DNA of 64,000 bases, taken from the NCBI GenBank assembly GCA_026770705.1, contig JANJGN010000017.1, positions 12,524,001 through 12,588,000 of the forward strand. Direction: 5' to 3'. The notes under the pieces were generated by a model. That model did not search any database. It saw nothing but the letters and a program-made list of their open reading frames with translations, and was not told the origin of the DNA. Below, in pieces: positions 20,336 through 57,045 of the stretch; positions within the stretch are counted from its first letter, which is position 1, and every line of letters begins with the position of its first letter. This DNA comes from Isurus oxyrinchus (Eukaryota). A program made the position numbers and the translations under genes.

Positions 20336-20423
20336 CCTCAACCCTCCCTACCTCAACCCTCCCTACCTCAACCCTCCCTACCTCAACCCTCCCTACCTCA
20401 ACCCTCCCTACCTCAACCCTCCC
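20336..20423. repeat. Perfect 15-bp minisatellite (CCTCAACCCTCCCTA)x~5.9
   Basis: Directly visible exact tandem copies. Confidence 0.97.
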
Positions 20424-28670: not shown

Positions 28671-29689
28671 TTTTTTGTGTCTTGCAAAGAAAATACTAGC
28701 TGTTAGTTGGGTCACACCAAATAGTTTATTGGTCTACTCTAGCTCTGACTGTGCAATGCAGATTTGCTTTCAGAATATCCAAAAGTCTACAGTAACCCCA
28801 AACTATCTTTCTGTACTAAATTCAAAGTGAATAACTTCAAATGAACATGAGTACACCTTATAACTTCAACTAATCAGGCACTATTACACCACAATCTTCA
28901 TAATGAATTTTAAACACAGAATATGCATGGGAGTACTAGAGATAACATTATCAATAGTAAAAGGAATAATACACTCTTGTTGTTGAAAAACAAAAGAAAT
29001 TTACAAGGAGAATGCCTGGTGTTTCTTGAGCAAAACATTATCATGCCATGTTTTAAACATTTACACAACAGAACAGAAGGCTTGCAACAGTCAAACTCGA
29101 CACAATTTGAACTTTGATCAAATTTATATCTTACAAGTTTTCATTAGTCATTGAGCTGAGTTTTAAAAAAATTATATGGGATGGGAACGTCGCTGGCAAG
29201 GGCAGCATTTATTGCTCTTCCTGAATGAGTAACGTAGAAAAGGGCAAGTACATGGTCTATAAAGAAGGATACTGATCAGCTGACATTTACAGATAAATCA
29301 AAATTTAGCAGAGTAAAAATTTAGCCCACAGGTTTCACTGTCAGACAAATTGTTTGGAACTAAAAAGTATGAAATGGAAGAGAATGAATAGCAGCTATGG
29401 CAAAATGCAGTTTTTCATATTTTCATACCAGCAAACCTACCAAAAAAGGGTAGACATGTGCCCCTTTACCTCCTCTATCCTCACCATCCCAAGGCCCCAA
29501 AGTCGTCTTCTAGGTGAATCAGCGATTCACTTGTATTTCTTTCAATTTAACATGCTGTATGTGCTGCTCACAATGAGATGTCATATACATTGGGGATGCA
29601 AATTGAGCACACCTCCACTCAGTCTGCAAGCATGATCCTGAGCTTCCTGTTGCTTGTAATTTTAATTTCACCACCTTGCTCTTGTGCTG

Positions 29690-30172
29690 AAATCTGTCCT
29701 CGGCCTGCTGCATTATCAAGTGAAGCTCAATGCAAGCTCAAGGGTGAGTACCTTGCCTTCTAATGAGGCACTTTACAGCCTTCTGGATGTAACATTGAAC
29801 TAAATAACATCAGGCCTTGAACTCCGATTCCCATTTTGGTTTTTTTTTTGGACGTGTGTCAGTTTGAATCTTGTTTTTCATGCTTTGCTTTTGGACAGAG
29901 CCGTTAATTATTCTGGCATTTGCACTCACTCACTCTAGACAAATGCTTTGGTTGTTTACCACAACCATTACCTCTCGCTTTGCCTTTTACTCCAAGACAT
30001 CTTTGTCATTTAATTTCTTCCACCCTTGTTCCCATTCTAGGTCTCTCTTTGTTCTTCCTTCCCCCTTTCACCAGCATTACCTTTCCACCCTCCAGTTCTG
30101 AAGTAATATTTGCCTCAAAACATTAACTCTCTCTCTCTCCGGATGCTGCCAGACCCAAGAATTTCCAGCACT
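29690..30172 (+). mobile_element. Degenerate Penelope-like 3' fragment
   Basis: GIY-YIG C-terminal remnant (gaagctcaatgcaagctc...ggcactttacagccttctgga), a 3' UTR and a decayed HHR/tail (agttctgaag...caaaacattaactct...gatgctgccagacc). Confidence 0.65.
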
Positions 30173-31345: not shown

Positions 31346-34300
31346 AAGAGGTTTTACACTAGAATGATAATAGGGGTCCTTTATTCATAGTACATCTTGC
31401 ATTCATTGTAATTCTAGAGCAGAAGCATGCTCATACTCACGCTTCTGAATACAGAATTTGCAATCTCACTCCCCTTTCCTAAAGCCTGTCTCCAATCACT
31501 TACCCACTTCCAGGATACAACAGTGCCGAGAGTCTGGTGAATAAGATTCCATTGTCGACAAACATTAAGAAAGGGAAGCACCAGTCTGACAACAGTGCCA
31601 TTCATCAGTGTTACTATCTTGATGCACACCTTCACTATGAAGGAAATCATAATTAGGTGAGGCTCATCAATGAGTTCTACATAATAAAACCCGAGACCTT
31701 CCTAGTCTGTGGCTAAGCTAATGGATCTGAAGCCAAATAATTGAAACAACAGCCAGTAAAAAAAAAATTAAAAGAATGAGAAATAAAAAATAAACCCAAG
31801 GTTTCTATCCAATGTTCAGCTAATCAGGCACTATTACACCATAATCTTCATAGTGAATTTTAAACACAGAATATGCAGTGGGAGTACTAGAGATAACATT
31901 ATCAATAGTAAAAGGAATAATACACTCCTTTTGTTGAAAAACAAAAGAAATTTACAAGAATGCTTGGTGTTTCTTGAGCAAAACATTATCATGCCATGTT
32001 TTAAACATTTACACACCAGAACTGATCCTCGAGCTTGCATTGAGCTTCACTTGATAATGCAGCAGGCCGAGGACAGATTTCAGCACAAGAGCAAGGTGGT
32101 GAAATTAAAATTACAAGCAACAGGAAGCTCAGGATCATGCTTGTAGACTGAGCGGAGGTGTGCTCAATTTGCATCCCCAATGTATATGACATCTCATTGT
32201 GAGCAGCACATACAGCATGTTAAATTGAAAGAAATACAAGTGAATCGCTGATTCACCTAGAAGACGACTTTGGGGCCTTGGATGGTGAGGATAGAGGAGG
32301 TAAAGGGGCACATGTCTACCCTTTTTTGGTAGGTTTGCTGGTATGAAAATATGAAAAACTGCATTTTGCCATAGCTGCTATTCATTCTCTTCCATTTCAT
32401 ACTTTTTAATTCCAAACAATTTGTCTAACAGTGAAACCTGTGGGCTAAATTTTTACTTTGCTAAATTTTGATTTATCTATAAATGTCAGCTGATCAGTAT
32501 CCTTCTTTATAGACCATGTACTTGCCCTTTTTTATGTTACTCAGGAAGAGCAACAAATGCTGCCCTTGCCAGCGACATTCCCATCCCATAAAATTTTTTA
32601 AAAACTCAGCTCAATGATTAATGAAAACTTGTAAGATATAAATTTGATCAAAGTTCAAATTGGGATGAGAAACACTCAGCTGAGTGGGAGATGTGAATAT
32701 TACAATGATCAACAAAAAATTCTTAATCCCAAATGTGTCAGACTTGACTCAGTGGTAGCTATTTGCCTCATGTTAGAAGATCACAAATCATTACAAGCAC
32801 ATGGGCAGAATGTAGGTTGACATTTTAGTGAGAATTCCCACTTAAAAACTTGGCAAAACAAGGTCTCCCATTATCCAGAAACTGTCAAATGCAAACGCAG
32901 AGACCCCTTTCCACCCAGTTCATTCTGGTACCACTTGCTTAGGACATGAGCCCTGGCATAAAATCTTCCATAGGGGTTTATGATACATTTTGAGGGAGTA
33001 AATTACAGATTGTGCTCTGAGTCATCAAGGCCAAGTTTTCAGGTCCATCTCTAGGGTAACATTAAGACTTGAAGCAAATGAGAACTTTGCAAAGTAAAGC
33101 TTTGACCTCCCAATTTTCTCCCCTGAATAGTTATGTAAAGATCTACTAGAAACATCCAAACGTGCCACACTTACACCTATGTATATCTACGAAACAGAAC
33201 ATTCGATTTAATTGGCCACATCAAAAAATACAATGGCAGAGCATTACAGGTTTACTGGCCAGAATTAATATTATTGTTTATGCTGCCTTGTCTGCAGCCT
33301 GAATTACTGAAACAATTTTTCCCAAGAAAACTGAGCAAGCATATACTGCTCATATTTCCCCTATATTACCGTTCAATGGGAAATAATTCAAGGTCTGCAA
33401 ACTACAAAACAGTTCTTATTGATGCCAAGAAACTTTACCTTCTCAATACATTGAAGCATTTCTGAAATTTCACATTACACAGTAGGTTAATTTGTTTTAT
33501 GCACTGAATGCAGAGATTTTGAAAATCATGCTTATAAAAGCAGCTAAGTCAATTTAAGTAGCTGAAGCTAAGATTGTATTACCAGCCCTGCTCACATTTC
33601 CTGAATCCAGTTCTGAATGCTTCAATCCAAAAATAAGCACATTTAAAAAGGCCTCTTCCTTCAGAGTGAGGCTCAATTAATAAAGGTCATCTTCCTCTCA
33701 CCTGGATCCTCAGATTAGCCTCTGTATGCCCGTGCACTTCAGAGCCCAATAGCTGGGGAATGCATGTTGTCAGGATGTGTGCAGTATGAGATAGGGAGAG
33801 GAGGAAGAGAAAAATAACTACAAATATAAATAAGCACATGGAGTTGCTTTCTAACTGCGACAAGTGGCCAGACCAAGCAAATCTCTGTTCATACAAGTGC
33901 CTGATGATTTAAGCTATGGGGTTCTCTCCCAATGTAGATACAAATACTTCTGTACAAAAAAAAGTGCTCTTTTTAAAAAAAAACAGAAGCAACCATCCCT
34001 CAAGTTACTACTATAAAACTTTCCAAGTGGTTTTGGCAGAGACCTGGGAGCAAGCTGCCAGATTGACATTCAAATTTATTCAACAGACCAAGTGTTAAAA
34101 TGAAACTCAGTAGTCATTAAATGTGGTTGCACCGGCCTCTTCACATTCCAACACTTCTGCAAGCATACTGGCCACAGAGATTCGGAATAGTTTTAAAAGC
34201 TAGCTTCACTGAAGGAAGCCATTTCTTATTGGTTCAGTCATACCAACAATAGAATGTCACAACATGTTAAGAGCATTTCAGTAAGTTTTCCTCAGCTTTG

Positions 34301-37583: not shown

Positions 37584-37834
37584 CCAACACCCTTGGATAT
37601 TAGAAAACTGCAAGTCACGATGAATGTCATGGTACAAGCCACGTCATGATTTCCCCCAGTGGGTCACTTACCTTCCATACCAGATACTTAAACATGTAGC
37701 TACACACCAACCAACACCCTTGGATATTAGAAAACTGCAAGTCATGATGAATGTCATGGTACAAGCCACGTCATGATTTCCCTCAGTGGATCACTTTCCT
37801 TCCATTCCAGACACTTAAACATGTAGCTACACAC
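37584..37834. repeat. 127-bp tandem duplication (2 copies)
   Basis: ccaacacccttggatattagaaaactgcaagtca...aacatgtagctacacac starts at 37584 and 37711, with few substitutions. Confidence 0.95.
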
Positions 37835-40800
37835 ACTATCTTCAATTTGTACTCAGAAGGTTCTGATTCTAAGCAATTTACCTTATAACTATTTTGAGTT
37901 GCATGATACCTATAGAAAAGTCTTTACAAGCAACAATTTAAACCCTGTTCCATCCATACTCCTATTTTGTTCTCTCCTTGTTCTGTTCAATGTTCAACAT
38001 CTTGTGTGTCAGTAGCCCTCCCATGCCTGAGCCATAGGACATTTTTATACAAGTTTGGACATTATAAAAAATGTATACTGCAGCAGCACCTTTCACAGCA
38101 GTTTGAAGGACCATTTAACCCTTTACTTGACAAAGCACCTTTTTAAGAGTAGTCACTGTTGTAATGTAGGAGATGTGGCAGCCAATGAGTATAGCAATAT
38201 TCCACAAACAACAACATGATAATGATCAGATAGTCTGTTGCAATGATGCTAGCTGAGGCATATGTATGACCAGGACACTGGATTACAGCACTGTTGGCAA
38301 ATGTAATGGTCATACACAAAACTATGTAGGTTTAAATTACAAATGCAATATATAATAGTATCAAAATTAAATTCAGCATTCATCTTCATCTGTCCCATCA
38401 TAGGTTTTCAAACTGGTGCCCACCAGGCCCTCAGCTGTCAGTAAGATCCACAAGGTCATTAGAATTCTGGCTGTCGATCCTCAGGTATACATATCAAGTT
38501 GCGGTCCTGGTGTTTAAAGTAATATTTGATTTAAATTACCTCTGGTGACGTCAACTAATAAGCACTGCACAAGAGCATATTTTTCACCTTTGGTTAACTG
38601 ACTGCAAACAGAGGAACGACAGTATACACATCCATGGACAACGACATGCAAATAACAGTCGTGATTTTTAAAAATAATTACCGGTACTCAAAAAACAACG
38701 CAGATAATCTTTCACACTAAAAGCTCCAATGCTACTGTGCCCATAACCCATACCACTATCAATTTGTGCACAAGATTACCAATTTTAAATTAAGAGGCCA
38801 AGAGAATTCATTGAGGAAACAGTTTCTTCCAGCAAGGCATTATGTTTCCATGGTTGCTTATTTTACATGCCACACAAAAAAAAAAGTTTTCACTTCCCCC
38901 AACATAGGAGAATGCCAAATCAGATGCCTACAGGCAGCGCAATTATTTCCAATCAATCTAATTTCTTACACTGTGCTCAATTACATATATTCTTTTGCAA
39001 ATTCTTGATTGGTTCATACAGGCCTGCCTGTGTTTCTGGGTCAGGTACTCCCACAATGTTTCTTATCTGTATATTTATGCTCAGCCTTGGCATATTTGCA
39101 TAACCGCTTAAAACAAATGCCCGGCACAGAAGATTTATAAAGTCATATGCAAGGAAATCAAGTAAGGTTTAGCTGGCCTATACCTTTACTGAACTTCAAT
39201 TCTGTTACTCAGATCATTATACCCTTCAAATTCATAAAAAGACCTCTGTTACTCCGTCCAACCCCAACAAAGAGTCAGCCAACTGGCTTTGATCTCAACA
39301 TAGTGGAGTTTGCAGTGCAAGGATGGAGTGAACTGGCCCACATCAACAGCCTAGTGCAAGGGTCCTAAAATGATTGTGTATTTAAATTGCATTTACCAAA
39401 ATCAATAAGCATGTTCAATTTGGTTCCAAAACAGCTTGAAAATAACCATCTAAATAGCTGCTATCACTTCACTCACTACACATACAACTAGAATATATTG
39501 AAGTTACAAAAGGCGTTGCCTGGACAGAATGTACTCAGCATATCTCGTCACATCAGTCAATACACAGCAAAGCAATTAATGTCCACCCAAAACCGCCAGT
39601 AGTTTTTGTATGCCATCAACATTCCTTGTATGAACGCTAAGGTACGACTCTCGATTTTATTTGTTAAGACAGTTACGCATTAGTAAATGATCTGCTTTAG
39701 GAATGTTGTTCTCAGTAACAAAATGGCTGCCAATGTCTCCTTTTACAAGTGAGGACTTCCTGAAAATGTATGGGAATAATATATTACACAATTGAATTAA
39801 CATTCTACTTTACCAAATCACTGAAAAAGCAGCACTAAGAATTAAGTGGAATATCAGAAATGTCAAATCCACTTCAGCTTATTTACACAGATGGGAAAAT
39901 TAAGTTCTCCAACTTAGCTACACACAAGTAACCACAATGCAAACAGATCACAAAACATTGAGGAGTAAAGACATACTTGTTCTTATTTCATTCTTCCCCA
40001 AAAATCAAGATAAACCAAGGGTAATATAAAACAAAGTCTTCCACAAAGCGTGCTGCTCAACCCCTTCTCAAACTCTCCCTCAAATCCAAGTTTTGTTGGG
40101 GAAAGAAGTCAGAATCAAAAACAAGATTAAAATAGATCCCATTTAAAATAATGAAATCTCAAATATTCAGTTCACTTGCTGAGAATCAGGGCAGCCCCAA
40201 CCATTCCCAATGCAAACAGTTTGAAAAAGGGAGAAAGGTTTTAAGCTGCTATGGTGTGTGCAGCAAGATTAGAGACGGAAGAACTCCACAAATAAACTAA
40301 GTTCTAAGAGTTGCAATACTTCAAGCCTTCCCAACATGCAAATTTACTGGTACCATTGTCAAGAGACTTGCAAAAATCTCTCTTGTCCAGATGTTTTTAA
40401 ACTACATTAATTTAATTAAACATAGTTGTGGACTAGCACTAGTCTAGCTCTCCCTCCCAGGAAACATTTGCAGTTTGCAGGGCATTCTCTTCCATGGTAT
40501 CTTTCAACACTCACCTTTCTAAAGGTTACTTTAAAAAAGTAAGTTTGAGTCAATTTCTCTGCAACCCACCCAGCATCCCGAAACAAATTTGGGTATTCTC
40601 AAACAAGCCTCAACTTTCCAACAATATTTTTAGATCATCCGTTAGCACATATTTTCTGCTTCCCTTCCCTACTGCTCCCTTCAAGAAGAATTATAGGAAA
40701 AAATGATACTAAGCTCCAGTCTTTCCACCAAAATAAATGCAGGTTGCCGTGTTGCTGTTGTTCCTTTTCTCACAAGTTTCTGCAAAAATTCTCCCAAAAG

Positions 40801-41419
40801 GATGATTCAGAAATGCAAAACAAAACACAGATTGATATGCAGTTACAGGTATTCTCCACTCCCCCCCCCCCCCCCCCCCCCCAACTACTTCAATTTGTAC
40901 TCTGAGAGGCAAACTACTCTGGTCTTTCCAAGAGTAATTAAAACAAAATAAAAAGCAGTACAAAGTGCACCTATTGTCCTCCCTCTGTTGCAATAAGGAA
41001 ATGCTCAAAAAACATCAAGTATGGTTTCACAAAAGATAAAATGAAATGCAGATCAACACATGGCTGTTATGTATTCTCCTTTTTAACTTCCGTGTGGAGG
41101 GAAGTACTGCAGTAGTTTAAAGTCCTCATTCGCTGGAATAAAATCAAAGAGAGCTCTGATGGCAGTTCCTGATCTTCGACCTTCCTCCCCCCCCCCCTTT
41201 AAACTCTGCAACTCTTCCCCCAAAACATATACACACTACTAAACCTGATCCTCAAGGAAATAAAACTGGTACTGAGACACGAGGCTATTTATTCCTTGCT
41301 CTAACTCTGCATGTTAAGCTCCCAGAGAGGAGGAGATGTCTGTTCAAACAACCGAGAGAGAGAGGCGGCGGGGGGGGGGGGGGGGGTAAGGGCAGGATCA
41401 GAAGTGCCGTTTTTCTGGA

Positions 41420-41570
41420 GGATAAAATTGGTTCTCCCTCCCCCCTCCTTTGCAATCTGCAGGAGGGTTCTGGATAAACTTGGCTCTCCCTCTCCCCTCC
41501 TTTGCAATCTGCAGGAGGATTTTGGATAAACTTGGCTCTCCCTCTCCTCTGCAATTTGCAGGAGGGTTTT
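41420..41570. repeat. 52-bp tandem repeat x3 near the start of intron 1
   Basis: GGATAAA...TTGG..CTCCCTC...TGCAAT.TGCAGGAGG units start at 41420, 41472 and 41524. Confidence 0.88.
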
Positions 41571-41774
41571 AGAAAGAAAAATAGGGGTGAAAACTCCTCC
41601 TCCAGAATAAAAAGGTGCAGGACTCTGGAGTTTTTTTTTGGGGGGGGGGGGGGGGCCCAAAGGCAGATGGCAGTGTAAGCGATACCCTCTCCTCCAGCTC
41701 TCTCCTCCCCCCCCCCCCCACCCCCACCCACACCTCGGTCAGGCTGGACGGTGGGAGGAGGGAAGGCTTGATAC

Positions 41775-42257
41775 CTTGACGCAGTCGATCGGGTACATCA
41801 CGCAGTGCTCCAGGACACCGGCCACCGCTCCGGCGATCATATGGGTGGAGGTGGAAGCGGTCTCGGGAAGGCTCTCGTACTCTCCCTCGCTGCTGCTGTT
41901 GCTGCTGCTGTTGTTGCTGTTCTTCTTCTCATCCGAGAAATTGTCCATAATATTTAAAAGACGGCTGGGCGGGGACGGCGGCTTCACCAAGATGTGGAAG
42001 AAAGGTGGCGGGGAGGCGAGGGCTGGCGACGACTTGCGGGCGACGGTGGCCACCACCGAGCCGGCCGCGATGCTGCTGCTGCTGCCGATGCCGATGCCGC
42101 CGCCGCTGCTGCTGCTGCCGATGCCGATGCCGCCGCTGCTGCTGCCGATGCCGTTGCCGCCGCCGCCGCTCGGGGCGTTGGCCTTGCCGTTACCGTTGGC
42201 GATCGCTTCGGCCCGCTCCGGTACTTCGATCCTCACTCCATCATTTTCAAATTCCAT
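41775..42257 (-). CDS. SLC25A28: Mitoferrin-2 (mitochondrial iron carrier), coding exon 1 (161 codons)
   Basis: Translation ends in [36 protein letters not shown], the mitoferrin first carrier repeat with the PxDxxK signature. It is followed by donor AAG|GTATCA at 41775/41774 (phase 0). The first in-frame ATG is at 42257 (MEFENDG); the start assignment is less certain than the exon. Confidence 0.93.
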
Positions 42258-43030
42258 CGGGGAATTAAAGCAAAAATAAATAAACCTCCGGGGCCTGGGG
42301 CTTTTCCCTCGGGTCCTCTCCGTGTGTTTGCGTTTTGCACGCACTTGTACTCGCACTCACTCACTGGCTCCGTTCGACGCTCCGGTCTTTATAAACAGTC
42401 GCCGCCATCCCCCTCCCTCACCCTCACGGTCACCATCCTGCTCCTGGCAGCGGGAGGGAGGCAAAATGGGGGCCGAGGCCCTGTGACGTACCTCGAATTT
42501 CCCAACCCCTCCGCGCGCTCCCTCAACCCAACTTTCGCCCATCCACGTAACCGCACCCCCCCTCCTCCTCCTCCTCCCGCTCCCCGCCCCCCCCCCCTTC
42601 TCTCGCATTCCTCAGACGCGATTGGGTCCGGCCCGATGACGGACGCGGCTCTCTCCCTCCTCATTGGCTTTGGCGGCTGTCGGTCCATCGTCCACGCCCC
42701 CTCCCCCCCGCGCTCCGGCGTCATCGGGCTAGGTGGCCCGCGGGGAGGGACGATTTTTTTTTTCTCGCTCATGCGCGCCTGCGTGCTTTCCGTCGCACTT
42801 TTGACGGGAACTCTCCGCCCCCCCACCTCCCCGCTCCTGTCCGTTTCCCGGGGACTGGATTGGGTGGCTTGGCGCTTTCCCGCCCACCCCTCGCGTTCCC
42901 ATTGGACCCCAGCTGCGTCACTCTGACCAGCGGGTTAGGTTGCGAGCGCGCGGCATGGACGGCCGCGAGGGAAGTATTCCAATCAGTGGCGGGAAAGCCT
43001 GTCACATGATTACTAGCGCCTGCTGGTGTT
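41780..43030 (-). promoter_or_regulatory. CpG-island promoter of SLC25A28
   Basis: The only strongly GC/CpG-rich stretch in the window, overlapping exon 1. Minus-strand CCAAT boxes (ATTGG on + at 42621, 42663, 42859, 42901), GC boxes (~42585, ~42692), CRE-like TGACGTA at 42484, and YY1-like GATGGCGGCG (minus, ~42400-42409). Confidence 0.85.
42361..42393 (-). promoter_or_regulatory. Candidate TATA box plus initiator
   Basis: TATAAAG begins at 42393 on the minus strand. An Inr-like CCAGT has its A at 42365, 28 nt downstream. Spacing is appropriate, but the TSS is not verifiable from sequence. Confidence 0.45.
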
Positions 43031-43486
43031 GCAATAGGGGTTTAAGCGCTTCCTAGCAAGGACAACGGGGAAAGGTCATTCATTGCACTTTCTTTTACAA
43101 GTGTGATTGTGCCTGCAAACCTTGGGTGATTTCCATTATTTTAAAAAGCAAGAACACCAGAAATGTGCAACACTTTGCAATGTCGCAATGTTTCCTTTCC
43201 AGCTTTAAAATCAGAACGAAACCCTTTTCCCAGTCATCACGAAATGAACACTAATGCGCCAATCCTTTGCCCGGTGACGAAATTGGGGAAGTGTTTGGGA
43301 AATGTCACAATTGCAAACCATGCGGAGATTTGCTTATTTTGAACAACAACGTGCGTCAAGTGAGCCTCGCTGTCCCTGTAACGTGTAGGCCTGGCCATTT
43401 CACAAATGTAACATATCATGTGTTTATGACAACAAAAACAGCTGGAAAAACCCAGCAGGTCTGGCAGCATCTGCGGAGAGGAACAC

Positions 43487-43525
43487 AGTTAACGTTTCGA
43501 GTCCGTATGACTCTTCAACAGAACT
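43487..43525 (-). ncRNA. Minimal hammerhead-ribozyme-like motif, array copy 1 (best preserved)
   Basis: Minus strand AGTT-CTGTTGA-A-GAGTC-ATACG-GACTC-GAAAC-GTT-AACT. Helix I is AGUU/AACU, helix II is perfect, GAAA is intact and helix III is palindromic ACGU. The core is CUGUUGA rather than CUGANGA. Confidence 0.65.
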
Positions 43526-44191
43526 AAGTAAAAATAGAAAAGAGGTGAAATATAAGCTGGTTTAAGGGTGGTGGGGGTGGGGGTGGGGCAAATAGAGCTG
43601 GATAGAGGGTCAGTGATAGATGGAGATAGCCAAAAGATGTCATAGACAAAAGGACAAAGAGGTATTGACGGTGGTGATACTATCTAAGGAATGTACTGAA
43701 GGGGAGATTAAGGGTAGAAAGCAGGACGATCAAAGTACAGATAGCCCTAGTGAGGGTGGGGTTGGGTAATTGAAATAGGCTAAAAGATAGAGATAAAACA
43801 ATGGATGGAAATAAATTTAAAAATAATGCAAATAGGTGGGAAAAGAGAAAATGCTGCTTCACTTGAAAGGAGTGTTTGGGCCCTTGGACGTTGAGGAGGG
43901 GGGAAGTAAAGGGGCAGGTGTTGCACCTTCTGCGGTTGCACGAAATAAACATTAATGCACTAATCCTTGCCAGGTGACAAAATTAGGGAAGTGTTAGGGA
44001 ATGTCACAATTGCAAACCATGCGGAGATTTGCTTATCTTGAACAACAACGTGCATCAAGTGAGCCTCGCTGTCTCTGTAACGTGTAGGCCTGGCCATTTC
44101 ACAAATGTAACATATCATGTGTTTATTACAACAAAAACAAAAAAAGCTGGAAAAACTCAGCAGGTCTGGCAGCATCTGCGGAGAGGAACAC

Positions 44192-44230
44192 AGTTAACGT
44201 TTCGACTCCGAATGACCCTTCAACAGAGCT
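44192..44230 (-). ncRNA. Hammerhead-like motif, array copy 2
   Basis: AGCT-CTGTTGA-A-GGGTC-ATTCG-GAGTC-GAAAC-GTT-AACT; mismatches in helices I and II. Confidence 0.5.
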
Positions 44231-45254
44231 AAGTAAAAATAGGTGAAATATAAGCTGGTTTAAGGGTGGGGGTGGTGGTGGTGGGACAGGTAGAGCTGGA
44301 TACAGGGTCAGTGATAGGTGGAGATAGCCAAAAGATGTCACAGACAAAAGGACAAAGAGGTATTGACGTGGTGATATTATCTAAGGAATGTACTAAAGGG
44401 GAGATTAAGGGTAGAAAGCAGGACGATCAAGGTATAGATAGCCCTAGTGGGGGTGGGGTGGGTTAGGGTAATTGAAATAGGCTAAAAGGTAGAGATAAAA
44501 CAATGGATGGAAAAAAAATTAAAAATAATGTAAATAGGTGGGAAAAGAAAAATATATATAAATTATTGGAAAAGGGGATGGGGATGGAGGAGTGAATTCA
44601 TGATCTAAAGTTGTTGAAATCAATATTCAGTCCGGAAGGCTGTAAAGTGCCTAGTTGGAAGATGAGGTGCTGTTCCTCCAGTTTGTGTTGAGCTTCACTA
44701 GAACAATGCAGCAGGCCAAGGACGGACATGTGGGCATGAGAGCAGGGTGGAGTGTTGAAATGGCAAGCGACAGGGAGGTCTGGGTCATGCTTGCAGACAG
44801 ACCGAAGGTGTTCTGCAAAGCGGTCACCCAGTCTGCGTTTGGTCTCTCCAATAGAGGAAACCGCATTGGGAGCAGTGGATGCAGTAGACTAAATTGAGGG
44901 AAGTGCAAGTGAAATGCTGCTTCACTTGAAAGGAGTGTTTGGGCCCTTGGATGGTGAGAAGGGGGGATGTAAAGGGGCAGGTGTTGCACCTTCTGCGGTT
45001 GCACGAAATAAACATTAATGCCCTAATCCTTGCAAGGTGATGAAATTAGGGAAGTGTTTGGGAATGTCACAATTGCAAACCATGTGGAGATTTGCTTATC
45101 TTTGAGAACAACGTACATCAAATGAGCATTGCTGTCCCTGTAACGTGTAGGCCTGGCCATTTCACAAATGTAACATATAATGTGTTTATTACAACAAAAA
45201 CAAAAATACCTGGAAAAACTCAGCAGGTCTGGCAGCATCTGCGGAGAGGAACAC

Positions 45255-45293
45255 AGTTAACGTTTTGACTCCGAATGACCCTTCATCAGAACT
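45255..45293 (-). ncRNA. Hammerhead-like motif, array copy 3
   Basis: AGTT-CTGATGA-A-GGGTC-ATTCG-GAGTC-AAAAC-GTT-AACT. Canonical CUGAUGA, but G12 is changed to A (CpG decay). Confidence 0.5.
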
Positions 45294-46313
45294 AAGTAAA
45301 AATAGAAAGGTGAAATATAAGCTGGTTTAAGGGTGGGGCGTGGTGGTGGTGGTGGGATGGGTAGAGCTGGATAGAGGGCCAGTGATGTGTGGAGATAGCC
45401 AAAAGATGTCATAGACAAAAGGACAAAGAGGTATTGACGGTGGTGATATTATCTAAGGAATGTACTAAAGGGGATACTAAGGGTAGAAAGCAGGACGAGC
45501 AAGGTACAGATAGCCCTAGTGAGGGTGGGGTGGGGTAATCGAAATAGGCTAAAAGGTAGAGATAAAACAATGGATGGAAATAAATTTAAAAATAATGCAA
45601 ATAGGTGGGAAAAGAAAATATAAGTTATCGGAAAAGAGGTTGGGGATGGAGGAGGGAGTTCATGATCTAAAGTTGTTGAACTCAATATTTAGTCCGGAAG
45701 GCTGTAAAGTGCCTAGTCGGAAGATGAGGTGCATTTCCTCCAGTTTGTGTTGAGCTTCACTGGAACATTGCAGCAGGGCAAGGACGGACATGTGGGCATG
45801 AGAGCAGGGTGGAGTGTTAAAATGGCAAGTGACAGGGAGGTCTGGGTCATGCTTGCAGAGACTGAAGGTGTTCCGCAAAGCAGTCACCCAGTCTGCATTT
45901 GGTCTCTCCAATAGAGGAAACCACATTGGGAGCAGCGAATGCAGTAGACTAAATTGAGGGAAGTGCAAGTGAAATACTGCTTCACTTGAAAGGAGTGTTT
46001 GGGCCCTTGGACGTTGAGGAGGGGGGAAGTAAAGGGGCAGGTGTTGTACCTTCTGCGGTTGCACGAAATAAACATTAATGCACTAATCCTTGCTGGGTGA
46101 TGAAATTAGGGAAGTGTTTGGGAATGTTACAATTACAAATCATGTGGAGATTTGCTTATCTTTAAGAACAACGTACATCAAATGAGCGTTGATGTCTCTG
46201 TAAAGTGTAGGCCTAGCAATTTAAAAAATGTAAAAACAATGTGTTTATTATAACAGAAACAAAAATACCTGGAATGACTCAGCAGGTCTGACAGCATCTG
46301 CAGAGAGGAACAC

Positions 46314-46352
46314 AGTTAACGTTTTGAGTCCGTATGACTCTTCATAATAACT
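46314..46352 (-). ncRNA. Decayed hammerhead-like motif, array copy 4
   Basis: AGTT-ATTATGA-A-GAGTC-ATACG-GACTC-AAAAC-GTT-AACT. The core is destroyed; helices are retained. Confidence 0.35.
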
Positions 46353-46748
46353 AGGTAAAAATAGAAAGGTGAAATATAAGCTGGTTTAAGGGTGGGGGGT
46401 GGTAGTGGTGGTGGTGGTGGGACAGGTAGAGCTGGATAGAGGACCAGTGATAGGTGGAGATAGCCAAAAGATGTCTTGGACAAAAGGACAAAGAGGTATT
46501 GACGGTGGTGATATTATCTAAGGAATGTGCTAAAGGGGACATTAAGGGTAGAAAGCAGGATGAGCAAGGTACAGATAGCCCTAGTGGGGGTGGGGTGGGG
46601 TAGGGTAATCGAAATAGGCTAGAAGATAGAGATAAACAATGGATGGAAATAAATTTAAAAATAATGCAAATAGGTGGGTAAAGAAAAATATATATAAATT
46701 ATTGGAAAAAGGGGAGTCGGAAAGGGGGTGGGGACGGAGGAGAGAGTT

Positions 46749-47600
46749 CATGATCTAAAGTTGTTGAACTTAATATTCAGTCCGGAAGGCTGTAAAGTGC
46801 CTAGTCAGAAGATGAGGTGTTGTTCCTCCAGTTTGCATTGAGCTTCACTGGAACGTTACAGCAGGTCAAGGACGGACATGTGGGCATGAGAGCAGGGTGG
46901 AGTGTTGAAATGGCAAGTGACAGGGAGGTCTGGATCATGCTTGCAGACAGACCGAAGATGTTCCACAAAGCGGTCACCCAGTCTGTGTTTGATCTCTCCA
47001 ATGTAGAGGAAACCACATTGGGCGCAGCGGATGCAGTAGTCTAAATTGAGGGAAGTGCAAGTGAAATACTGCTTCACTTGAAAGGAGTGTTTGGGCCCTT
47101 GGACTTTGAGGAGGGGGGAAGTAAAGGGGCATGTGTTGCACCTTCTGCGGTTGCATGAGAAGGTGCCATGGGAAGGGGTTGAGGTGTAGGGGGTGATGGA
47201 GGAGTGGACCAGGGTGTCCCGGAGGGAACGATCCCTGCGGAATGCCGCCAGAGTGGGGTGAAGGGAAGATGTGTTTGGTGGTGGCATCATGCTGGAGTTG
47301 GCGGAAATGGCGGAGGATGATCCTTTGAATGCGGAGGCTGGTGGGGTGATATGTGAGGACAAGGGGGACTCTATCATGGTTCTGGGAGGGAGATGAAGGT
47401 GTGAGGGCGGATGCGTGGGAGATGGGCCAGATACGGTTGAGGGCCCTGTCAACCACCGTGGGTGGAAAACCTCAGCTAAGGAAGAAGGAAAACATGTGAG
47501 AGGAACTGTTTTTGAAAGTGGCATCATCAGAACAGATGCGCCGGAGGCGAAGGAACTGAGAGAATAGGATGGAGTCCTTACAGGAAGTGGGGTGAGAGGA
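46749..47600 (-). pseudogene. Penelope-like RT C-terminus, linker and GIY-YIG endonuclease remnant (frameshifted)
   Basis: VPLVLTYHP...RIILRHF, AFRRDRSLRDTLVHS, CNRRRCNTC, YCIRCAQCGFLYIGEIKHRLGDRFVEH...PVTCHFN (GIY-YIG with CxxC). Confidence 0.9.
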
Positions 47601-47789
47601 CCCCCGTTTATTCCAACCCTCTCTTATTACCATTTGACTGATTTTTTTTTACATAAAGATGGTATGTCCACTATTACAGTTTAAAGTCATAGGTTCATTT
47701 AATCTTGCAGCAAGAAGGAGGTAATTTAATCCATTGAATCTCTACAGCTCTTTTGAAGAGTGAGCTATTCAGTCCTCCCCCACTTTGGC

Positions 47790-48545
47790 AGGAAGAGTGG
47801 AAAGTAAACTATTACTAAATGAAGAGAAAAAGCTGTAGTTCAGAGGGTCTAGGTGTTCTTGTAAATGAAACAAAAAGTTAGCATGCAGGTACAGCACGTA
47901 ATTAGCAAAGATTGGAATGTTGGCCTTTATTGCAAGGAGTATGGAGTATAAAAATAGCAAAGTCATGCTACAACTGTACAGGGTGTTGCTGAAACCATAC
48001 TTTGAGTACTGTGCAGAGTTTTGATCTCATTAAGGAGGGATATACTTGCATTAGAGGCAGTTCAGAAATGCTCACTTTGTTGATTGCTGAGATGAAGAAG
48101 TTGTCTTATGAGGAAAGGTTGCACCGGTTTTCCCCATGCTCACTGGAGTTTGGAAGAATGAGGGGCAATCTTATTGAAAGATATAAAATTTTGAGAGGGG
48201 TTGACAAGGTAGACGCTGACAGGATGTTTCCCCTCGCGGGCAGGTTATCTCGAATTATGGAGCACAGTTTCAGAATAAGGGATTTCCCATTTAAGTCAGA
48301 GAAGAGGAGGAATTTCTTCTTTCAGATGGTCGTGAATATTTGAAATTCTCTACCCTTGTGGAGGCTGAGTCTTTGAATATATTCAAGGCTGAGATAAAAA
48401 TATTTTTGAACTATAGAGGAGTCAAGTGTTATAAGGAACAGGCAGGAAAGGGGAATTGAGGCCAACATTCAAATATTGAATGGTGGAGCAGGCTTGAAGA
48501 GCCTTATGGCCAACTCCTGTTCTTTTGTTCTATGTTCTCATGTTC
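47790..48545 (+). mobile_element. CR1 3' fragment
   Basis: LSYEERLHR...RMRGNLIERYKILRG...RRNFFFQ, plus the CR1 3' UTR. Confidence 0.85.
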
Positions 48546-49649
48546 ACTCTTTTCCCATATCATTGTTATTTTTTCTCCTTCAGATATTTATCAAGTTTCC
48601 TCTGAAAGTGACTACTGAATCTGTTTCCACCACCCTATCAGGTGGTGCATTCCAAATCTTAACTATGCACTGCATTAAAATGTTTCTCCTCATGTCACCT
48701 CTGATTCTTTAAGTCCATTATTTGCATTTTACATTTATTTTATTTAAGAACTCCCCTGTGAGCTGTCTTGAGACACTTCATTATGTTAAAGATGCCATAT
48801 GAAGGCATATTATTGTAGTTGGGAAAAGTGAAATTAGAGAATTGCATGTAGAGCCAGAGAATTATTCATCAAAGTAACATGGGACAAGATTTTTCAGATG
48901 GCAGGGTTTCCCACCCCACCATCTGAAGAGTCTACGGGGAATACATCCCTGCTGATACTGGCCACTCTACAGCATTTGATGCTTCAAAGTTGAAAGCACA
49001 GTCACTGGAAATACAGGAGAGGGGACATTAATAATTGTCTGCATTGCTCTTACAAATTCTACATTCTCCCACCGCCCCACCCCACCGCCCATAACTCCTA
49101 CCAGCATTCATGATCAGTATAGAAACGCACATGATCTTTGTTTTTGTAGACCATTTAGTTGTATACAATGAAGCATTACAGGCCAAATTTAAAATTTAAA
49201 CCCACATCCCACATGCTATGCAGCATAGTATTTAGGACCCTGCAACTAGTTTACTGAGGTGTGGCATAGATTTTTACTACTGATGCATCATTTTATTAGT
49301 TTCATTTTCTGTCATGTTACAAGGTAACTTCACTCACAGAAATATCATAGTGCATTTGTGGAAAATTTGGTAAGATTCCAGATTGTTCTTATTGACATGA
49401 TTCTTTGGCTTCTTTGATTCACATCCTTGTGTCATACCTTCAGGCCAGGTACCAAAAAGTGAGGCTGCACACAATGACAACTTCAAGGTGCATAAGCAAA
49501 GAGGGAATTAGATACGCCGTGAATTCTAGATGTGTCTTATGGTTTAAATCTTGTTGTTACGTACCCTCAGTAAACTAAACAAATTCAATTGCTGGAGATG
49601 GATTAAGCAATTCAGACCAAATAACACCACTTTACACCTGTATCCAGCC

Positions 49650-50340
49650 TTAATGTAGCAAAAAGTTTAAAGGGATTCCAAAGGTGACTTTAATGTAATA
49701 AAATGTCCCAAGATGTTCCAGAGGTGTGATTATCAAACAAGATTTGACACTGAGCAAGGTAAGGAGTTGTTGATCAAAGAGGTAGGTTTTGGGGAGTGTC
49801 TTGAAGGAGGAGGGAGGGAGATTTATGGAAGGAAGTTTGGAACTTACAGTCCAGATAAAAAGGCACCAATGGTGTAGCAAAGAAAATATGTGCTACACAA
49901 GGGCAGAGATGGAGGGGAAAACATACATTGAGCAGGAATTAGAAAATAAGTTTGTTATAATGGCCTTAGGCCCAGCCAAAGGGGTTTGTTCAGTGGACAC
50001 CTTCGAAGGCTGGAGAGGTAAGTATTGAGAATTTAAGTAGACAGTTTTACAATGGGGTGGCACAATGGCTGATAGCTCTGCCATCGATGTTGAAGGAGGG
50101 GATTAGAGAAACCACAGTAGGTCAGAGATGGTTGATTGGAAGGTGCAAGCAAAGGAGGTCCCTGAGGCAAAACAGGAAGAGGCCAGGCAGGGATTTGTAA
50201 AGGAAGTTGGAGATTTTGAAATCCATGTATTTAGGGATGAGAAGCTTGTGGAGTTTGGCAAAAAGGGAAGAAATAGGATAATGGGACTACGTGCAAGATA
50301 GGAAGGCAGTGGCAGGGTTTTGGACAACAAGGAGTCCCTG
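49650..50340 (-). mobile_element. Old L2-like LINE 3' fragment
   Basis: SFKTLPKTYLFDQ resembles the L2 ORF2 C-terminus, followed by a tail (EHLGTFYYIK frame) of the type shared with SINEs. Confidence 0.55.
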
Positions 50341-50667
50341 TAGCATTGAGTTTTACCAGCAAGAAGAGCAAGGCACGGATGAGATCTTCTCAGTGAGGCC
50401 TTGGTGGGATTTGAAGTTAATCTCAAAATCAGACAAGACATATACAGAAAGACATCGATTCCTTCCTCTCAGACTGAGCCCTTAACAGTCATAATTTCTG
50501 TTTTTCTCCCCCAATGCCCTCACCAGTACACTCCCGTCCTCTCCTGAAGATATTGAATCACACAGAAGTACAGTTCCACAGGGGCTGGCTACCCTGCAAA
50601 ACCTCATACAAGTATGTGAGCTAGATCTAACCCAAGTCAGTGAATGTCAGTAGGCTGTTCAACAAGC

Positions 50668-52839
50668 TGTCATGATGGGGGGGGGTGTCAAAAAGCTCCC
50701 CTCTTTGCCCTCTCCTCACTTGACCAAAATGAATTTTTTGTTTGGAAAAGGTTATACTTGCTAATTCAGTGAGCACTTAACTGTTTATGCACTGTGATCA
50801 TAAAAGAACCAATAGGACAGGTTTTCTTGAGTTTAACAAAGAAAAAGGTTAGCTTTATTATTCTTAAACAAATCTAAGTAAACTAACAAAAAATTTTTTA
50901 TTCATTCATGGGATGTGGGCTTTGCTGGCTGGGCTAGAATTTATTGCCCATCCCTAGTTGCCCTTGAGAAGGTGGTGGTGAGCTGTCTTCTTGAACCGCT
51001 GCAGTCCAAATGGTGGAGGTACACCCACAGTGCTGTTAGGGAGGGAGTTCCAGGATTTTGTCCCAGTGACAGTGAAGGAATGGTGATATATTTCCAAGTC
51101 AGGAGAGTGACTTGGAGGGGAACTTCCAGGTGGTGGTGTTCCCATCTTTCTGCTCCCCTTGTCCTTCTAGATGGTAGTGGTCATGGGTTTGGAAGGTGCT
51201 GTCTAAGGAGTCTTGGTGAATTCCTGCAGTACATCTTGTAAATGATAAACACTGCTGCTACTGTGCATCGGTGGTGGAGGGAGTGAATGTTTGTGGATGT
51301 GGTGCCAATCAGGCGGGCTGCTTTGTATTGGATGGTGTCCAGCTTCTTGAGTGTTGTTGGAGCTGCATTCAACCAGGCAAATGGGGAGTATTCCATCACA
51401 CTCCCAACTTGTGCCTTGTAGATGGTGGACAGGATTTGGGGAGTCAGGAGGTGAGTTACTCGTCACATGATTCCTAGTCTCTGACCTGCTCTTGTATCCA
51501 AAGTATTTATATGGCTAGTCTAGTTCAGTTTCTGGTCAATGGTAATCCCCAGGATGTTGATAGTGGGGGATTCAGTAATGGTAATGCCAGTGAACATTAA
51601 GGGGCAAAGTTTGGATTCTCTCTAGTTGGAGATGGTCATTGCCTGACATTTGTGTGGTGCGAATGTTACTTGCCACTTGTCAGCCCAAGCCTGGATATTG
51701 TCCAGGTCTTGCTGCCTTTGGACATGGACCGCTTCAGTATCTGAGGAGTCTTGAATGGTGCTGAACATTGTGCAATCATCAGCGACCATCCACACATCTG
51801 ACCTCATGATGGAGGGAAGGTCATTGCTGAAGCAGCTGAAGATGGTTGGGCCTAGGACACTACCCTGAGGAAATCCTGCAGTGATGTCCTGGAGCTGAGA
51901 AGACTGACCTCCAACAAGCACAACCATCTTCCTTTGTGCTAGGTATGACTCTAACCAGCGGAGTACAGAATATGCACTGACTTTCACACATAGATACACA
52001 TTCGACATTCACACACACACACACACTAATACAGATTACATTGTGGAAAGGATAGGTTAGAGTCCATTAAAAAAAGTAAAAGAGTATGCAGCCTATAGTT
52101 TGGTGACTCAGCTGATTTCAGGCTTGATTTAATGATCTCAATTCTTCCAATTTAAAGATTTAGAAGACTCAGTTGGTTGTTTCTCGGGAGACTGTTTTGC
52201 TGAGTTGCATTCTTTTAAGAAATCTCTGGTCTGCAGCAGGGCATCCCTGGATGATCACAATCAGCAAACAGAGCTTGAAGCTTACCAGGTGGACTGGAGA
52301 AGAAAGGGAGGCAGGAGGTACCCAGTTAAGACTTCTCCCTAGGTTCCTTGCCCTCAGTTCTGCTGAGAAAACATGCTTCAAACATTGGTTTGTCATGTGA
52401 ACTTCTTTCTCCAACTGCCAATGTCAAAAAGGAGACATTGTCCATTGATTCCAAGAGTGACTTCATTAGCCCATGTCTGGAAGCTAACTTAGCCAGGTCC
52501 CATTGTCCAAGTGATTAGTCTTGATGGCCCATCTCCAACAGTTGAATACTTCAACAGTTGATTGCCATAGATGCCTTGCTAATGAGTTAGGAGATGTGTG
52601 TCTTTCACAGTCCCCTGAAGTCATTGCCTTTGATAGATTTTGCAGACGGACTGACTCCACTCCAATGAATTAGAATGTGGAATGTATAGTAATGCATATT
52701 GGGGTTATCCATCTTGGGGTCTGAGTTCAAGTCACTTTTATCTCTGTGCTTTTAAAAAGTCTCTTTTTAAAAGCTCAATTCAGGTTTCTAGCCGAAGGAT
52801 TAAAAATTATTATTTGCTATAAAGCACATCTTCATGGCA
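50668..52839. mobile_element. Possible solo LTR, interrupted by a LINE
   Basis: Termini TGTCATGA...TCATGGCA (TG...CA short inverted ends). Flanks aagc/aaga form an imperfect 4-bp TSD. Length is about 1.1 kb after removing the nested LINE. Confidence 0.35.
50896..51962 (-). mobile_element. 5'-truncated CR1-clade LINE with intact 3' end
   Basis: WLESYLAQRKM...PQGSVLGPTIFSCF...VADDCTMF...WADKWQVTFAPHKCQ and MEYSPFAWLNA. The 3' tail is at ~50896. Confidence 0.9.
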
Positions 52840-54319: not shown

Positions 54320-55195
54320 ATAGGGATAGGGCCATTCAGCCGCTCAAGCCTGTTCCACCATGCAATTAGATCATAATTGATCTGTATCTTAACTCCATTT
54401 ATCCATCTTTGTTCTGTAACTCGTAATACCCTTGTCTAACAAAAATCTATCTATAACAGAAACAGAAATACCTGGAAAAACTCAGCAGGTCTGGCAGCAT
54501 CGGCGGAGAAGAAAAGAGTTGACGTTCCGAGTCCTCAGGACCCTTCGACAGAACTAGTTTTGGATTTCCAGCATCCGCAGTTTTTTTGTTTTTATCTCTT
54601 TTTGTTTTTGTTCTGTTGAAGGGTCATGAGGACTCGAAACATCAACTGTGCTCTCCTCTGCCGATGCTGCCAGGCCTGCTGAGTTTTTCCAGGTATTTCT
54701 GTTTCTGTTTTTGTTTTGGATTTCCAGCATCCGCAGTTTTTTGCTTTAAAAAATCTATCTATCACTGTTTTGAAATTTTAACCTGACCCCCCCCAGCCTC
54801 AACAGCTTTTTGGAGATGGGAGTCCCATAGTTCCTCACACCTTTGTGGAAGGAAGTACGTCCTGACATTACCCCTAAATGTCCCAGTTCTCATTCGAAGG
54901 TTACATCCCCTTGTTCTGGACTGTCCTACCAGAGGAAATAGTTTCTCCCTATCTATCCTATCAAATCCTTTAATCATCTTAAACGCCTCAATTAGATCAG
55001 CCCCTTATCTTCTATACTCAAGGGAATGCAAGTCATAGTCCATGCAACCTGTCCTCATACTTTAACCCATTTAGCCCCAGTACTGTTCCGGTGAATCTGC
55101 ACTGCACCCACTCCAGAGCCAGTATATTCTTCATGAGGCACAGTGCCCAGAACTTAATGTGGTACTGCAGGTGGAGATTTAACCAAAGCTTTATG
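54320..55195 (-). mobile_element. CR1 3' fragment hosting a mini-element insertion
   Basis: MIKGFDRIDREKLFPLVGQSRTRG and the CR1 terminal motif at ~54330. Confidence 0.82.
54455..54748. mobile_element. 294-bp fold-back Penelope-derived insertion with an HHR motif on each strand
   Basis: Arms 54455-54556 and 54610-~54710 are reverse complements. The insertion is flanked by the direct repeat AAAAATCTATCTAT (54441-54454 and 54749-54762). Confidence 0.85.
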
Positions 55196-56509: not shown

Positions 56510-57045
56510 AGGACGATCAAGCTCGAGGAACGAGGCCTTATCTTTTGCCTCAGCACTCTACAGTCTTCTGGGCTCAACATTGAGTTCAGCAACTTTAGAT
56601 CATAGCCTCGACCTAACCATCCTGTTCTATGCGATATTTTCTTCCCTTTTTCCTTAGTTTTGCTGGGTCGGTCTTTGTCTTGTTTCTTTCTTAATCCCTT
56701 CATGTTGCATTCAGATGATTTTTATGTAGCAATTCACAGCTCATTTGGACACAACCTTTGTTTCTTTGCTATATCCAGTGACCACTCTCGTGAAATCTTT
56801 TGTTATTTAATCTCTCCTGCCCTCCACCCCATCACGGAGCTTCTCTTTTATTCTTCCTGCCCCCTCTCCCTTTCCACTGGCTTAAAAGCTCTTACATTTC
56901 TATCTTTCTTCAATTCTAATGAAAGACCACCAACGTGAAACATTAACCCTGTTTCTCTCTCCACAGGTGCTGCCTGAACTGCTGCATTTTTCCAGCTTTT
57001 TCTTTTTTTATGTCAGATTTTCAGCATCCGCAGAATTTTGCTTTT
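56510..57045 (+). mobile_element. Degenerate Penelope-like 3' fragment
   Basis: caagctcgaggaac...ggctcaacattgagttcagcaactttagatcata (endonuclease C-terminus), a decayed HHR at ~56912-56947, and the tail tttcagcatccgcagaattttgc. Confidence 0.7.

Follow-up and report, generated by a model that had tools for sequence, protein, structure and literature searches.

We have analysed a 64,000-nucleotide stretch of the Isurus oxyrinchus genome (contig JANJGN010000017.1, positions 12,524,001 to 12,588,000; hereafter the window), in which four repeat units bearing hammerhead ribozyme motifs lie upstream of a mitochondrial carrier gene, likely SLC25A28. Judged from the sequence, the array most probably arose from a single 5'-truncated insertion of a Penelope-like element (PLE), which would later have been duplicated in tandem at the DNA level along with ~190 bp of adjoining host DNA, leaving the hammerheads as decaying passengers without a role at the gene. 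The amplification of one insertion as DNA is supported by a 12-bp target-site duplication, by three identical junctions and by the grouping of the PLE parts in one clade (99/96).

Anatomy and origin of the array

The units start at 43238, 43939, 45002 and 46062 and show 85-91% pairwise identity (blastn), with the PLE part of unit 4 extending as far as 47600. The initial annotation had described four head-to-tail units with minus-strand minimal hammerheads, in the same orientation as the gene. Both points were confirmed at the positions given there, the open reading frame (ORF) of the carrier also lying on the minus strand. The units had been taken for pure Penelope-like ends, which did not hold, since in each of them ~190 bp of host flank is joined to the 3' portion of a single PLE. 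A search of the 4.98-Gb genome with the flank gave four matches, every one inside the array, with the search tool warning that a missing match is no proof of rarity. Tandem Repeats Finder, with its period limit of 500, does not detect the array.

Flank A1 (43238..43430) is, by genome search, host DNA continuous with the promoter side. It is followed by the PLE part of unit 1 (43431..43943, minus strand), which comprises the 3' untranslated region (UTR), the hammerhead and an endonuclease remnant, with an internal deletion of ~360 bp at 43850/43851. Flank A2 (43939..44129), a duplicate of the host flank, starts at the common junction and precedes the PLE part of unit 2 (44130..45006, minus strand), which is cut at the duplication junction. 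Flank A3 (45002..45192), of which a similar contig is present in a relative (organism B, ~2% diverged), and flank A4 (46062..46251), with private changes clustered at 46192-46237, precede the PLE parts of unit 3 (45193..46066, minus strand) and unit 4 (46252..47600, minus strand). The latter is the longest piece, extending to where the original insertion was truncated at its 5' end, and holds a broken ORF with a CX4CxxC linker and a GIY-YIG/CCHH-type endonuclease. The inner junctions are identical in all three cases and lie on 2-5 nt of microhomology.

Homology to the PLE family stops at 47600, and the other listed family loci continue beyond this point. Hence, the PLE copy of the array is 5'-truncated. 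Next come five C (47601..47605; G on the element strand), which are not in the family at this place and are likely untemplated, and the right copy of the 12-bp target-site duplication (47606..47617). The remaining copies of this 12-mer are found at 43422, 44121, 45184 and 46243. Within one mismatch, it occurs at exactly five places in the 64 kb, corresponding to the four flank/PLE borders and 47606.

The family was sampled by genome searches with PLE ends, taking the best 40 each of 2051, 10598, 3288 and 1313 candidates; the sample therefore leans towards look-alikes of the array units. A tree of 56 rows, containing the four units and the 52 of 93 family copies longer than 780 nt (41 shorter ones left out; bootstrap not fully settled), recovered the units as the above clade, whose common stem measures 0.015 against 0.034-0.051 for the tips. 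The four PLE parts as independent insertions were thus ruled out, and these lengths indicate that the first duplication was likely early. Patterns of shared changes in the PLE part linked adjacent units 25 times and non-adjacent units 4 times (12 versus 4 on columns with a letter in all four units), and in the flank, units 1 and 2 stood against units 3 and 4 in 8 of the 9 cases of a two-two split. The units deviate by 3.4-5.3% from the family majority letters, the family copies by 3.2% on average.

Contigs from organism B were also compared with the array. Its promoter contig showed 13 differences in ~624 letters, and run X11 contained two flank contigs, with 4 and 11 changes relative to A2; for the contig with 11, 10 changes are listed and 8 of them agree with unit 3. 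Run X6 gave one flank version among the matches listed. No organism B contig bridges the junction (depth 0 at 43956-43963), and the two flank versions are suggestive of a tandem layout there as well. At least one duplication is likely older than the split from organism B, as far as these contigs indicate.

Based on these data, the history of the array would have started ~1.2 kb upstream of the ATG, where an insertion of ~1.35 kb, running from the 3' end to 47600, would have produced a target-site duplication of 9-12 bp. One duplication of ~1.09 kb at 2-5-nt microhomology would have occurred fairly soon after, and unequal crossover or conversion between neighbours would have led to four units. 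The process would have been completed by the loss of 360 bp from unit 1, by the conversion of helix II along one or more short tracts from another subfamily and by neutral decay. Microhomology-mediated local tandem duplication and unequal crossover are well-known processes. Like their products, the array has one copied junction and neighbour-biased shared changes, and there is no essential difference from them, the passenger happening to be a hammerhead-bearing PLE end. The array behaves like a PLE-derived minisatellite, and the inert fossil that the initial annotation had kept as its fallback is the better reading.

By the features tested in its sequence, the element of the array is an endonuclease-positive (EN+) Penelope-like fragment. 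Over 130 aa, the unit 4 ORF and a family ORF share 82% identity, and a GIY-YIG motif with two inner cysteines is visible in the unit translations. Another family ORF matched Pfam GIY-YIG with an E of 4.5e-4 and 20.9 bits, just under the 22.6 cut-off, and one of three family ORFs gave a weak RVT_1 match (E 0.0065, under the cut-off). Four ORF fragments from the window itself gave no relevant Pfam match. The linker in the unit translations reads CNRRRCNTC and agrees with the CX2-5CxxC linker between reverse transcriptase (RT) and endonuclease that defines the Neptune/Nematis clade (Craig et al. 2021, PMC8557442). With EN+ PLEs of this type, the fragment shares the C-terminal GIY-YIG with two cysteines between motifs, the CX4CxxC linker, 5' truncation, a target-site duplication and an optional tail of 30-40 bp, here found at 73 of 138 family ends (PMC8557442). 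The hammerhead in the 3' repeat is a further EN+ feature present here. Unlike a full element of this type, the fragment appears to comprise the last 1.35 kb only and is frameshifted, and the window contains no RT core.

Other PLE remnants were observed in the window. An inverted pair of short ends of another subfamily lies at 54452-54750, with a tail and a hammerhead bearing U at core position 6 (U6) on each, and an older decayed 3' end with a tail lies on the plus strand at 56897-57045. Distant endonuclease fragments (68-79%) were found at 29459-29825, 32022-32310 and 56518-56603.

Hammerhead state and family variation

Each unit contains a predicted 39-nt type I minimal hammerhead fold on the minus strand. 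The positions 43487, 44192, 45255 and 46314 given in the initial annotation correspond to the 3' ends of helix I, and both the loopless ACGU palindrome reported as helix III and the GUU triplet were seen in all four. The predicted cut sites are spaced by 705, 1063 and 1059 nt. The check with hammerhead models proposed there was negative, as an Rfam search of 40000-52000 gave no hammerhead at E<=10. A pattern scan of the window found unit 1 and one other motif, against one match in 20 shuffled windows; units 2-4 were missed because of their changes.

Hammerhead 1 (43487..43525, minus strand; N17 at 43491) is of the family type, with CUGUUGA, GAAA and intact helices I and II. Hammerhead 2 (44192..44230, minus strand) has the same two boxes and one mismatch each in helices I and II. 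Hammerhead 3 (45255..45293, minus strand) carries CUGAUGA, G12A and a helix II mismatch, and hammerhead 4 (46314..46352, minus strand) carries C3A, G5U and G12A. Helices I and II are thus intact in units 1 and 4, with 1-2 mismatches in units 2 and 3, and the general base is lost in units 3 and 4 through G12A. The retention of GAAA in copies 1 and 2 and of CUGAUGA in copy 3 was found as previously described, and none of the four units combines CUGANGA and GAAA within one motif. For each active site of a double hammerhead, CUGANGA and GAAA are contributed by a single monomer, with helix II connecting the two boxes. Hence, the CUGAUGA of unit 3 would not be rescued by the GAAA of units 1-2. Complementation through helix II strand exchange between unit 3 and units 1-2 is unlikely.

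Variable columns make up 8 of 39 in the hammerheads of the array and 44 of 429 outside them, a difference leaning towards more variation in the hammerhead (p=0.06), which is thus not conserved above the neighbouring DNA. In folding predictions, units 2 and 3 would form an alternative hairpin burying the core, and double-hammerhead folds were disfavoured in every pair, lying 7-28 kcal/mol (39-mers) and 21-39 kcal/mol (cis) above the minimum. Nearest-neighbour energies penalise such folds and the set has no active control, so that only the ranking is usable.

The hammerhead could be parsed in 89 of the 93 family copies, four being dropped for gaps. Their core reads CUGUUGA in 64 and CUGAUGA in 9; 3 copies are canonical and intact, 22 are intact with U6 and 64 are damaged. 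The CUGUUGA of units 1-2, previously regarded as a lesion, is therefore the majority state of the family and was inherited. U at the normally fixed A6 was observed across the family (loci L007-L119; 43515-43521 in the window) and in a second subfamily, whose core is CUGUCGA. Among the family copies sampled, the closest dispersed relative of the array PLE, L040 (G000:C20; 100/97), also has A at position 6.

The published descriptor of minimal hammerheads requires cuganga (PMC4209133 supplement), and the U6 core falls outside it for this reason. Searches of literature listings showed no published U6 PLE hammerhead; subscription papers, the supplements of the preprint bioRxiv 10.64898/2026.07.22.740005 and file 1 of the PMC4209133 supplement may bear on this point. 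Position-6 changes are reported to give low activity, with A6C nearly abolishing Mg2+ cleavage in one ribozyme (PMC3088659, PMC7151607). The G12A change, of the CpG-decay type, is present in 21 of the 89 copies, and has been described to slow cleavage from >500-fold to ~10^6-fold (PMC2553840).

A haplotype of three helix II letters, with a G-G mismatch, is common to units 2 and 3 (44202-44224, 45265-45276). This haplotype belongs to the other, short-form subfamily, the unit bodies being long-form. Within the family, two of its letters show tight linkage (p=2e-10), and all three occur in 6 of the 24 best-matching loci (L098, L099, L106, L111, L113 and L114), which ruled out the mismatch as a private lesion. 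The patch is likely to reflect at least one short ectopic conversion tract over helix II, and its distribution suggests that the hammerhead with the mismatched helix II was itself mobile.

Ribozyme, retrozyme and stop-signal readings

The hammerheads resemble the minimal ones of metazoan PLE pseudo-long terminal repeats (pLTRs; as described by Cervera and de la Pena 2014, PMC4209133) in the loopless palindromic helix III, the 4-5-bp helix I, the extra nucleotide between A9 and G10.1, the G10.1-C11.1 pair, the GUU triplet (also in their supplement alignment) and the position at the PLE 3' end. The helices, the palindromic 15.2-16.2 pairs and the extra base after A9 were all present in the array. 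Two differences were noted, namely the CUGUUGA core of the family and of units 1-2, which their cuganga descriptor would miss, and a tandem arrangement due to local duplication instead of the pLTR-ORF-pLTR layout. In published work, monomers of such hammerheads do not cleave and dimers and trimers do so weakly (PMC4209133). For the anole PLE, hammerhead cleavage is reported only in the presence of the element's protein, hammerhead mutants insert normally in vitro and no RNA-seq ends were reported at the cut site (PMC11167929). Cleavage was lacking in 8 of 9 Xenopus dimer elements (bioRxiv 10.64898/2026.07.22.740005).

The target-site copies contain AATAAA on the minus strand (44122..44127, 45185-45190, 46244-46249 and 47607-47612), with CATAAA instead in unit 1 (43423-43428). 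In units 2, 3 and 4 this signal lies ~70 nt past the hammerhead and is followed by CA and GU/U-rich sequence. AATAAA occurs after 13 of 138 family ends, against a background of 12%, which ruled it out as a family trait and identifies it as a host feature. Flank A4 has 8 private changes at 46192-46237, 5 of which are C>A, corresponding to G>U in the sense direction, compared with 2 of 98 elsewhere (Fisher p=1e-5 for a window chosen post hoc; clustering permutation p=0.048, in one of four units). As a result, the 30 nt past the hexamer contain 16 U in unit 4 versus 10-11. A stop signal favoured by selection, local template switching or a mistake in the assembly could each account for this cluster.

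According to the initial annotation, the hammerheads would pair in cis on a sense transcript, releasing RNAs or circles of 0.7-1.06 kb or cutting read-through RNA. The part of this proposal concerning PLE-type minimal hammerheads that need a partner and are co-oriented with the gene stood; functional cis pairing was not supported, given G12A in units 3-4, the damaged cores, the duplication at DNA level with host flank, the intervening AATAAA and the lack of hammerhead conservation. Intact helix III palindromes and GUU sites in all four units, the family-intact unit 1 and the low but real cleavage of minimal dimers and trimers (PMC4209133) speak for such cleavage, the sole plausible route being cleavage by the unit 1 core at the GUU site in a unit upstream of it. 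Nevertheless, three of the four catalytic halves are damaged, the core is U6, units 2 and 3 are predicted to misfold, the double-hammerhead folds lie well above the minimum and a unit-length product requires two cuts. The AATAAA signals between hammerheads would likely end transcripts before partner hammerheads meet. Overall we consider cis cleavage quite improbable. Should a sense transcript exist, it would be expected to end mostly at the AATAAA past the first (dead) hammerhead, with cleavage absent or at trace level. Still harder to sustain is the insertion in one step of tandem cDNA copied from a circular RNA, as in retrozymes (background in PMC7229834 and PMC6765202). The array does resemble metazoan non-LTR retrozymes in its tandem units, one type I hammerhead per unit and PLE origin (PMC7229834; bioRxiv 10.64898/2026.07.22.740005), and the unit size is near the upper end of the reported 51-972 bp (bioRxiv 10.64898/2026.07.22.740005). 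However, retrozymes mostly measure 150-450 bp, their hammerheads being canonical and active and their circles expressed (PMC7229834; bioRxiv 10.64898/2026.07.22.740005), whereas the units of the array measure 0.7-1.06 kb, contain coding remnants and host flank and have no dispersed family. The array lacks two consecutive complete hammerheads and does not show the hammerhead state used to define a non-LTR retrozyme in the preprint (bioRxiv 10.64898/2026.07.22.740005), nor is it one of a dispersed family with a target-site duplication around the whole array only. The unit includes host flank from outside the target-site duplication, found nowhere else, the target-site 12-mer is inside every unit and shared changes are nested and neighbour-linked. 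The AATAAA at the flank start also speaks against the 190 nt having been carried by 3' transduction. We regard this origin as extremely improbable. The anatomy matches instead the unequal-crossover route proposed in the same preprint for the local amplification of PLE ends (bioRxiv 10.64898/2026.07.22.740005).

The array might also have been retained as a read-through barrier through stacked polyadenylation signals and not through ribozymes, the duplicated target site supplying AATAAA and a GU/U-rich element to each unit, with the U-rich PLE end upstream. This would be compatible with AATAAA followed by CA and GU/U-rich sequence in units 2-4, with the raised U content behind the hexamer of unit 4, which a sense transcript would meet first, and with a duplication likely common to organism B. 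We nonetheless hold it to be unlikely: the clustering in A4 is marginal (p=0.048), the hexamer was present at the host's target site beforehand, follows family ends at the background rate and is lost in unit 1, and a single local template switch beside the A-rich PLE end could produce the A4 cluster. Moreover, no upstream sense gene is known and the A4 letters come from the assembly alone. An extended version, in which two species would have kept the array as a transcription-stop stack shielding the SLC25A28 promoter, with unit 4 tuned by the G-to-U run and the one intact U6 hammerhead, beside the promoter, perhaps trimming escapers, likewise has little probability. If true, the helix II patches matching other subfamilies would represent resident Penelope ends rewritten by other copies. 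A single insertion duplicated as DNA, with passenger hammerheads, remains the preferred explanation, even if several points weigh against it. The unit 1 hammerhead has no changes in 39 nt relative to the family type, the GUU sites and helix I 3' strands are intact in 4/4 units, so that in principle unit 1 might cleave an adjacent unit. The position-6 data cover A6C and not A6U (PMC3088659, PMC7151607). In addition, the A4 cluster yields a U-rich element after AATAAA that is not obviously expected under neutrality, and the duplication seems to have been kept in a second species.

The adjacent carrier gene and implications

The first coding exon of the carrier gene was placed at 41775..42257 on the minus strand, with its 3' edge inferred from translation. 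In a Pfam search, the minus-strand ORF starting at 42257 gave a match to Mito_carr (E 2.4e-5). CutC is located on the same contig, and an ENTPD gene ~270 kb from the carrier gene is in head-to-head orientation to it, an arrangement which we take to agree with the human SLC25A28 gene order. Because of this synteny the gene is likely SLC25A28 (mitoferrin-2); judged by sequence, it may also be the paralogue SLC25A37. A PDB search with exon 1 gave no matches, and a simple motif search for more carrier exons found none. A CpG island and promoter region, inside which the ORF starts, spans about 42000..43050 (CpG observed/expected 1.01), with the 5' UTR extending to at least 42547, and a contig from run X17 classified as RNA-type by the tool's guess covers 42200-42547. 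Such contigs carry no information on strand, RNA ends or circles, and uncovered parts (42613-43379 in X17; flank A2 in X15 and X18, the latter probably DNA) were not taken as silence. A GCC/GCT-type coding repeat at 42060-42180 gives the first exon a long Gly/Ser-rich N-terminal stretch, and small intronic tandem repeats were seen at 41420-41568 (52 bp units), 37584-37834 (127 bp) and 20336-20423 (15 bp).

As far as its sequence tells, the array is probably a fossil rather than a functioning RNA switch. Its kind, a locally duplicated PLE fossil, is likely already known, and a regulatory role at SLC25A28 would matter more if true, although nothing in the analysis shows one. What the locus offers is a worked case in which one can follow the stages by which DNA duplication turns one Penelope end into a tandem array resembling a retrozyme. 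It also provides simple tests to exclude such arrays from retrozyme counts, namely host flank in the unit, a copy of the target site per unit and one junction. Given the U6 core found throughout the family and the putatively mobile subfamily whose helix II is mismatched, the family may have spread with hammerhead cleavage that was weak or not needed, in agreement with the anole work cited above (PMC11167929).

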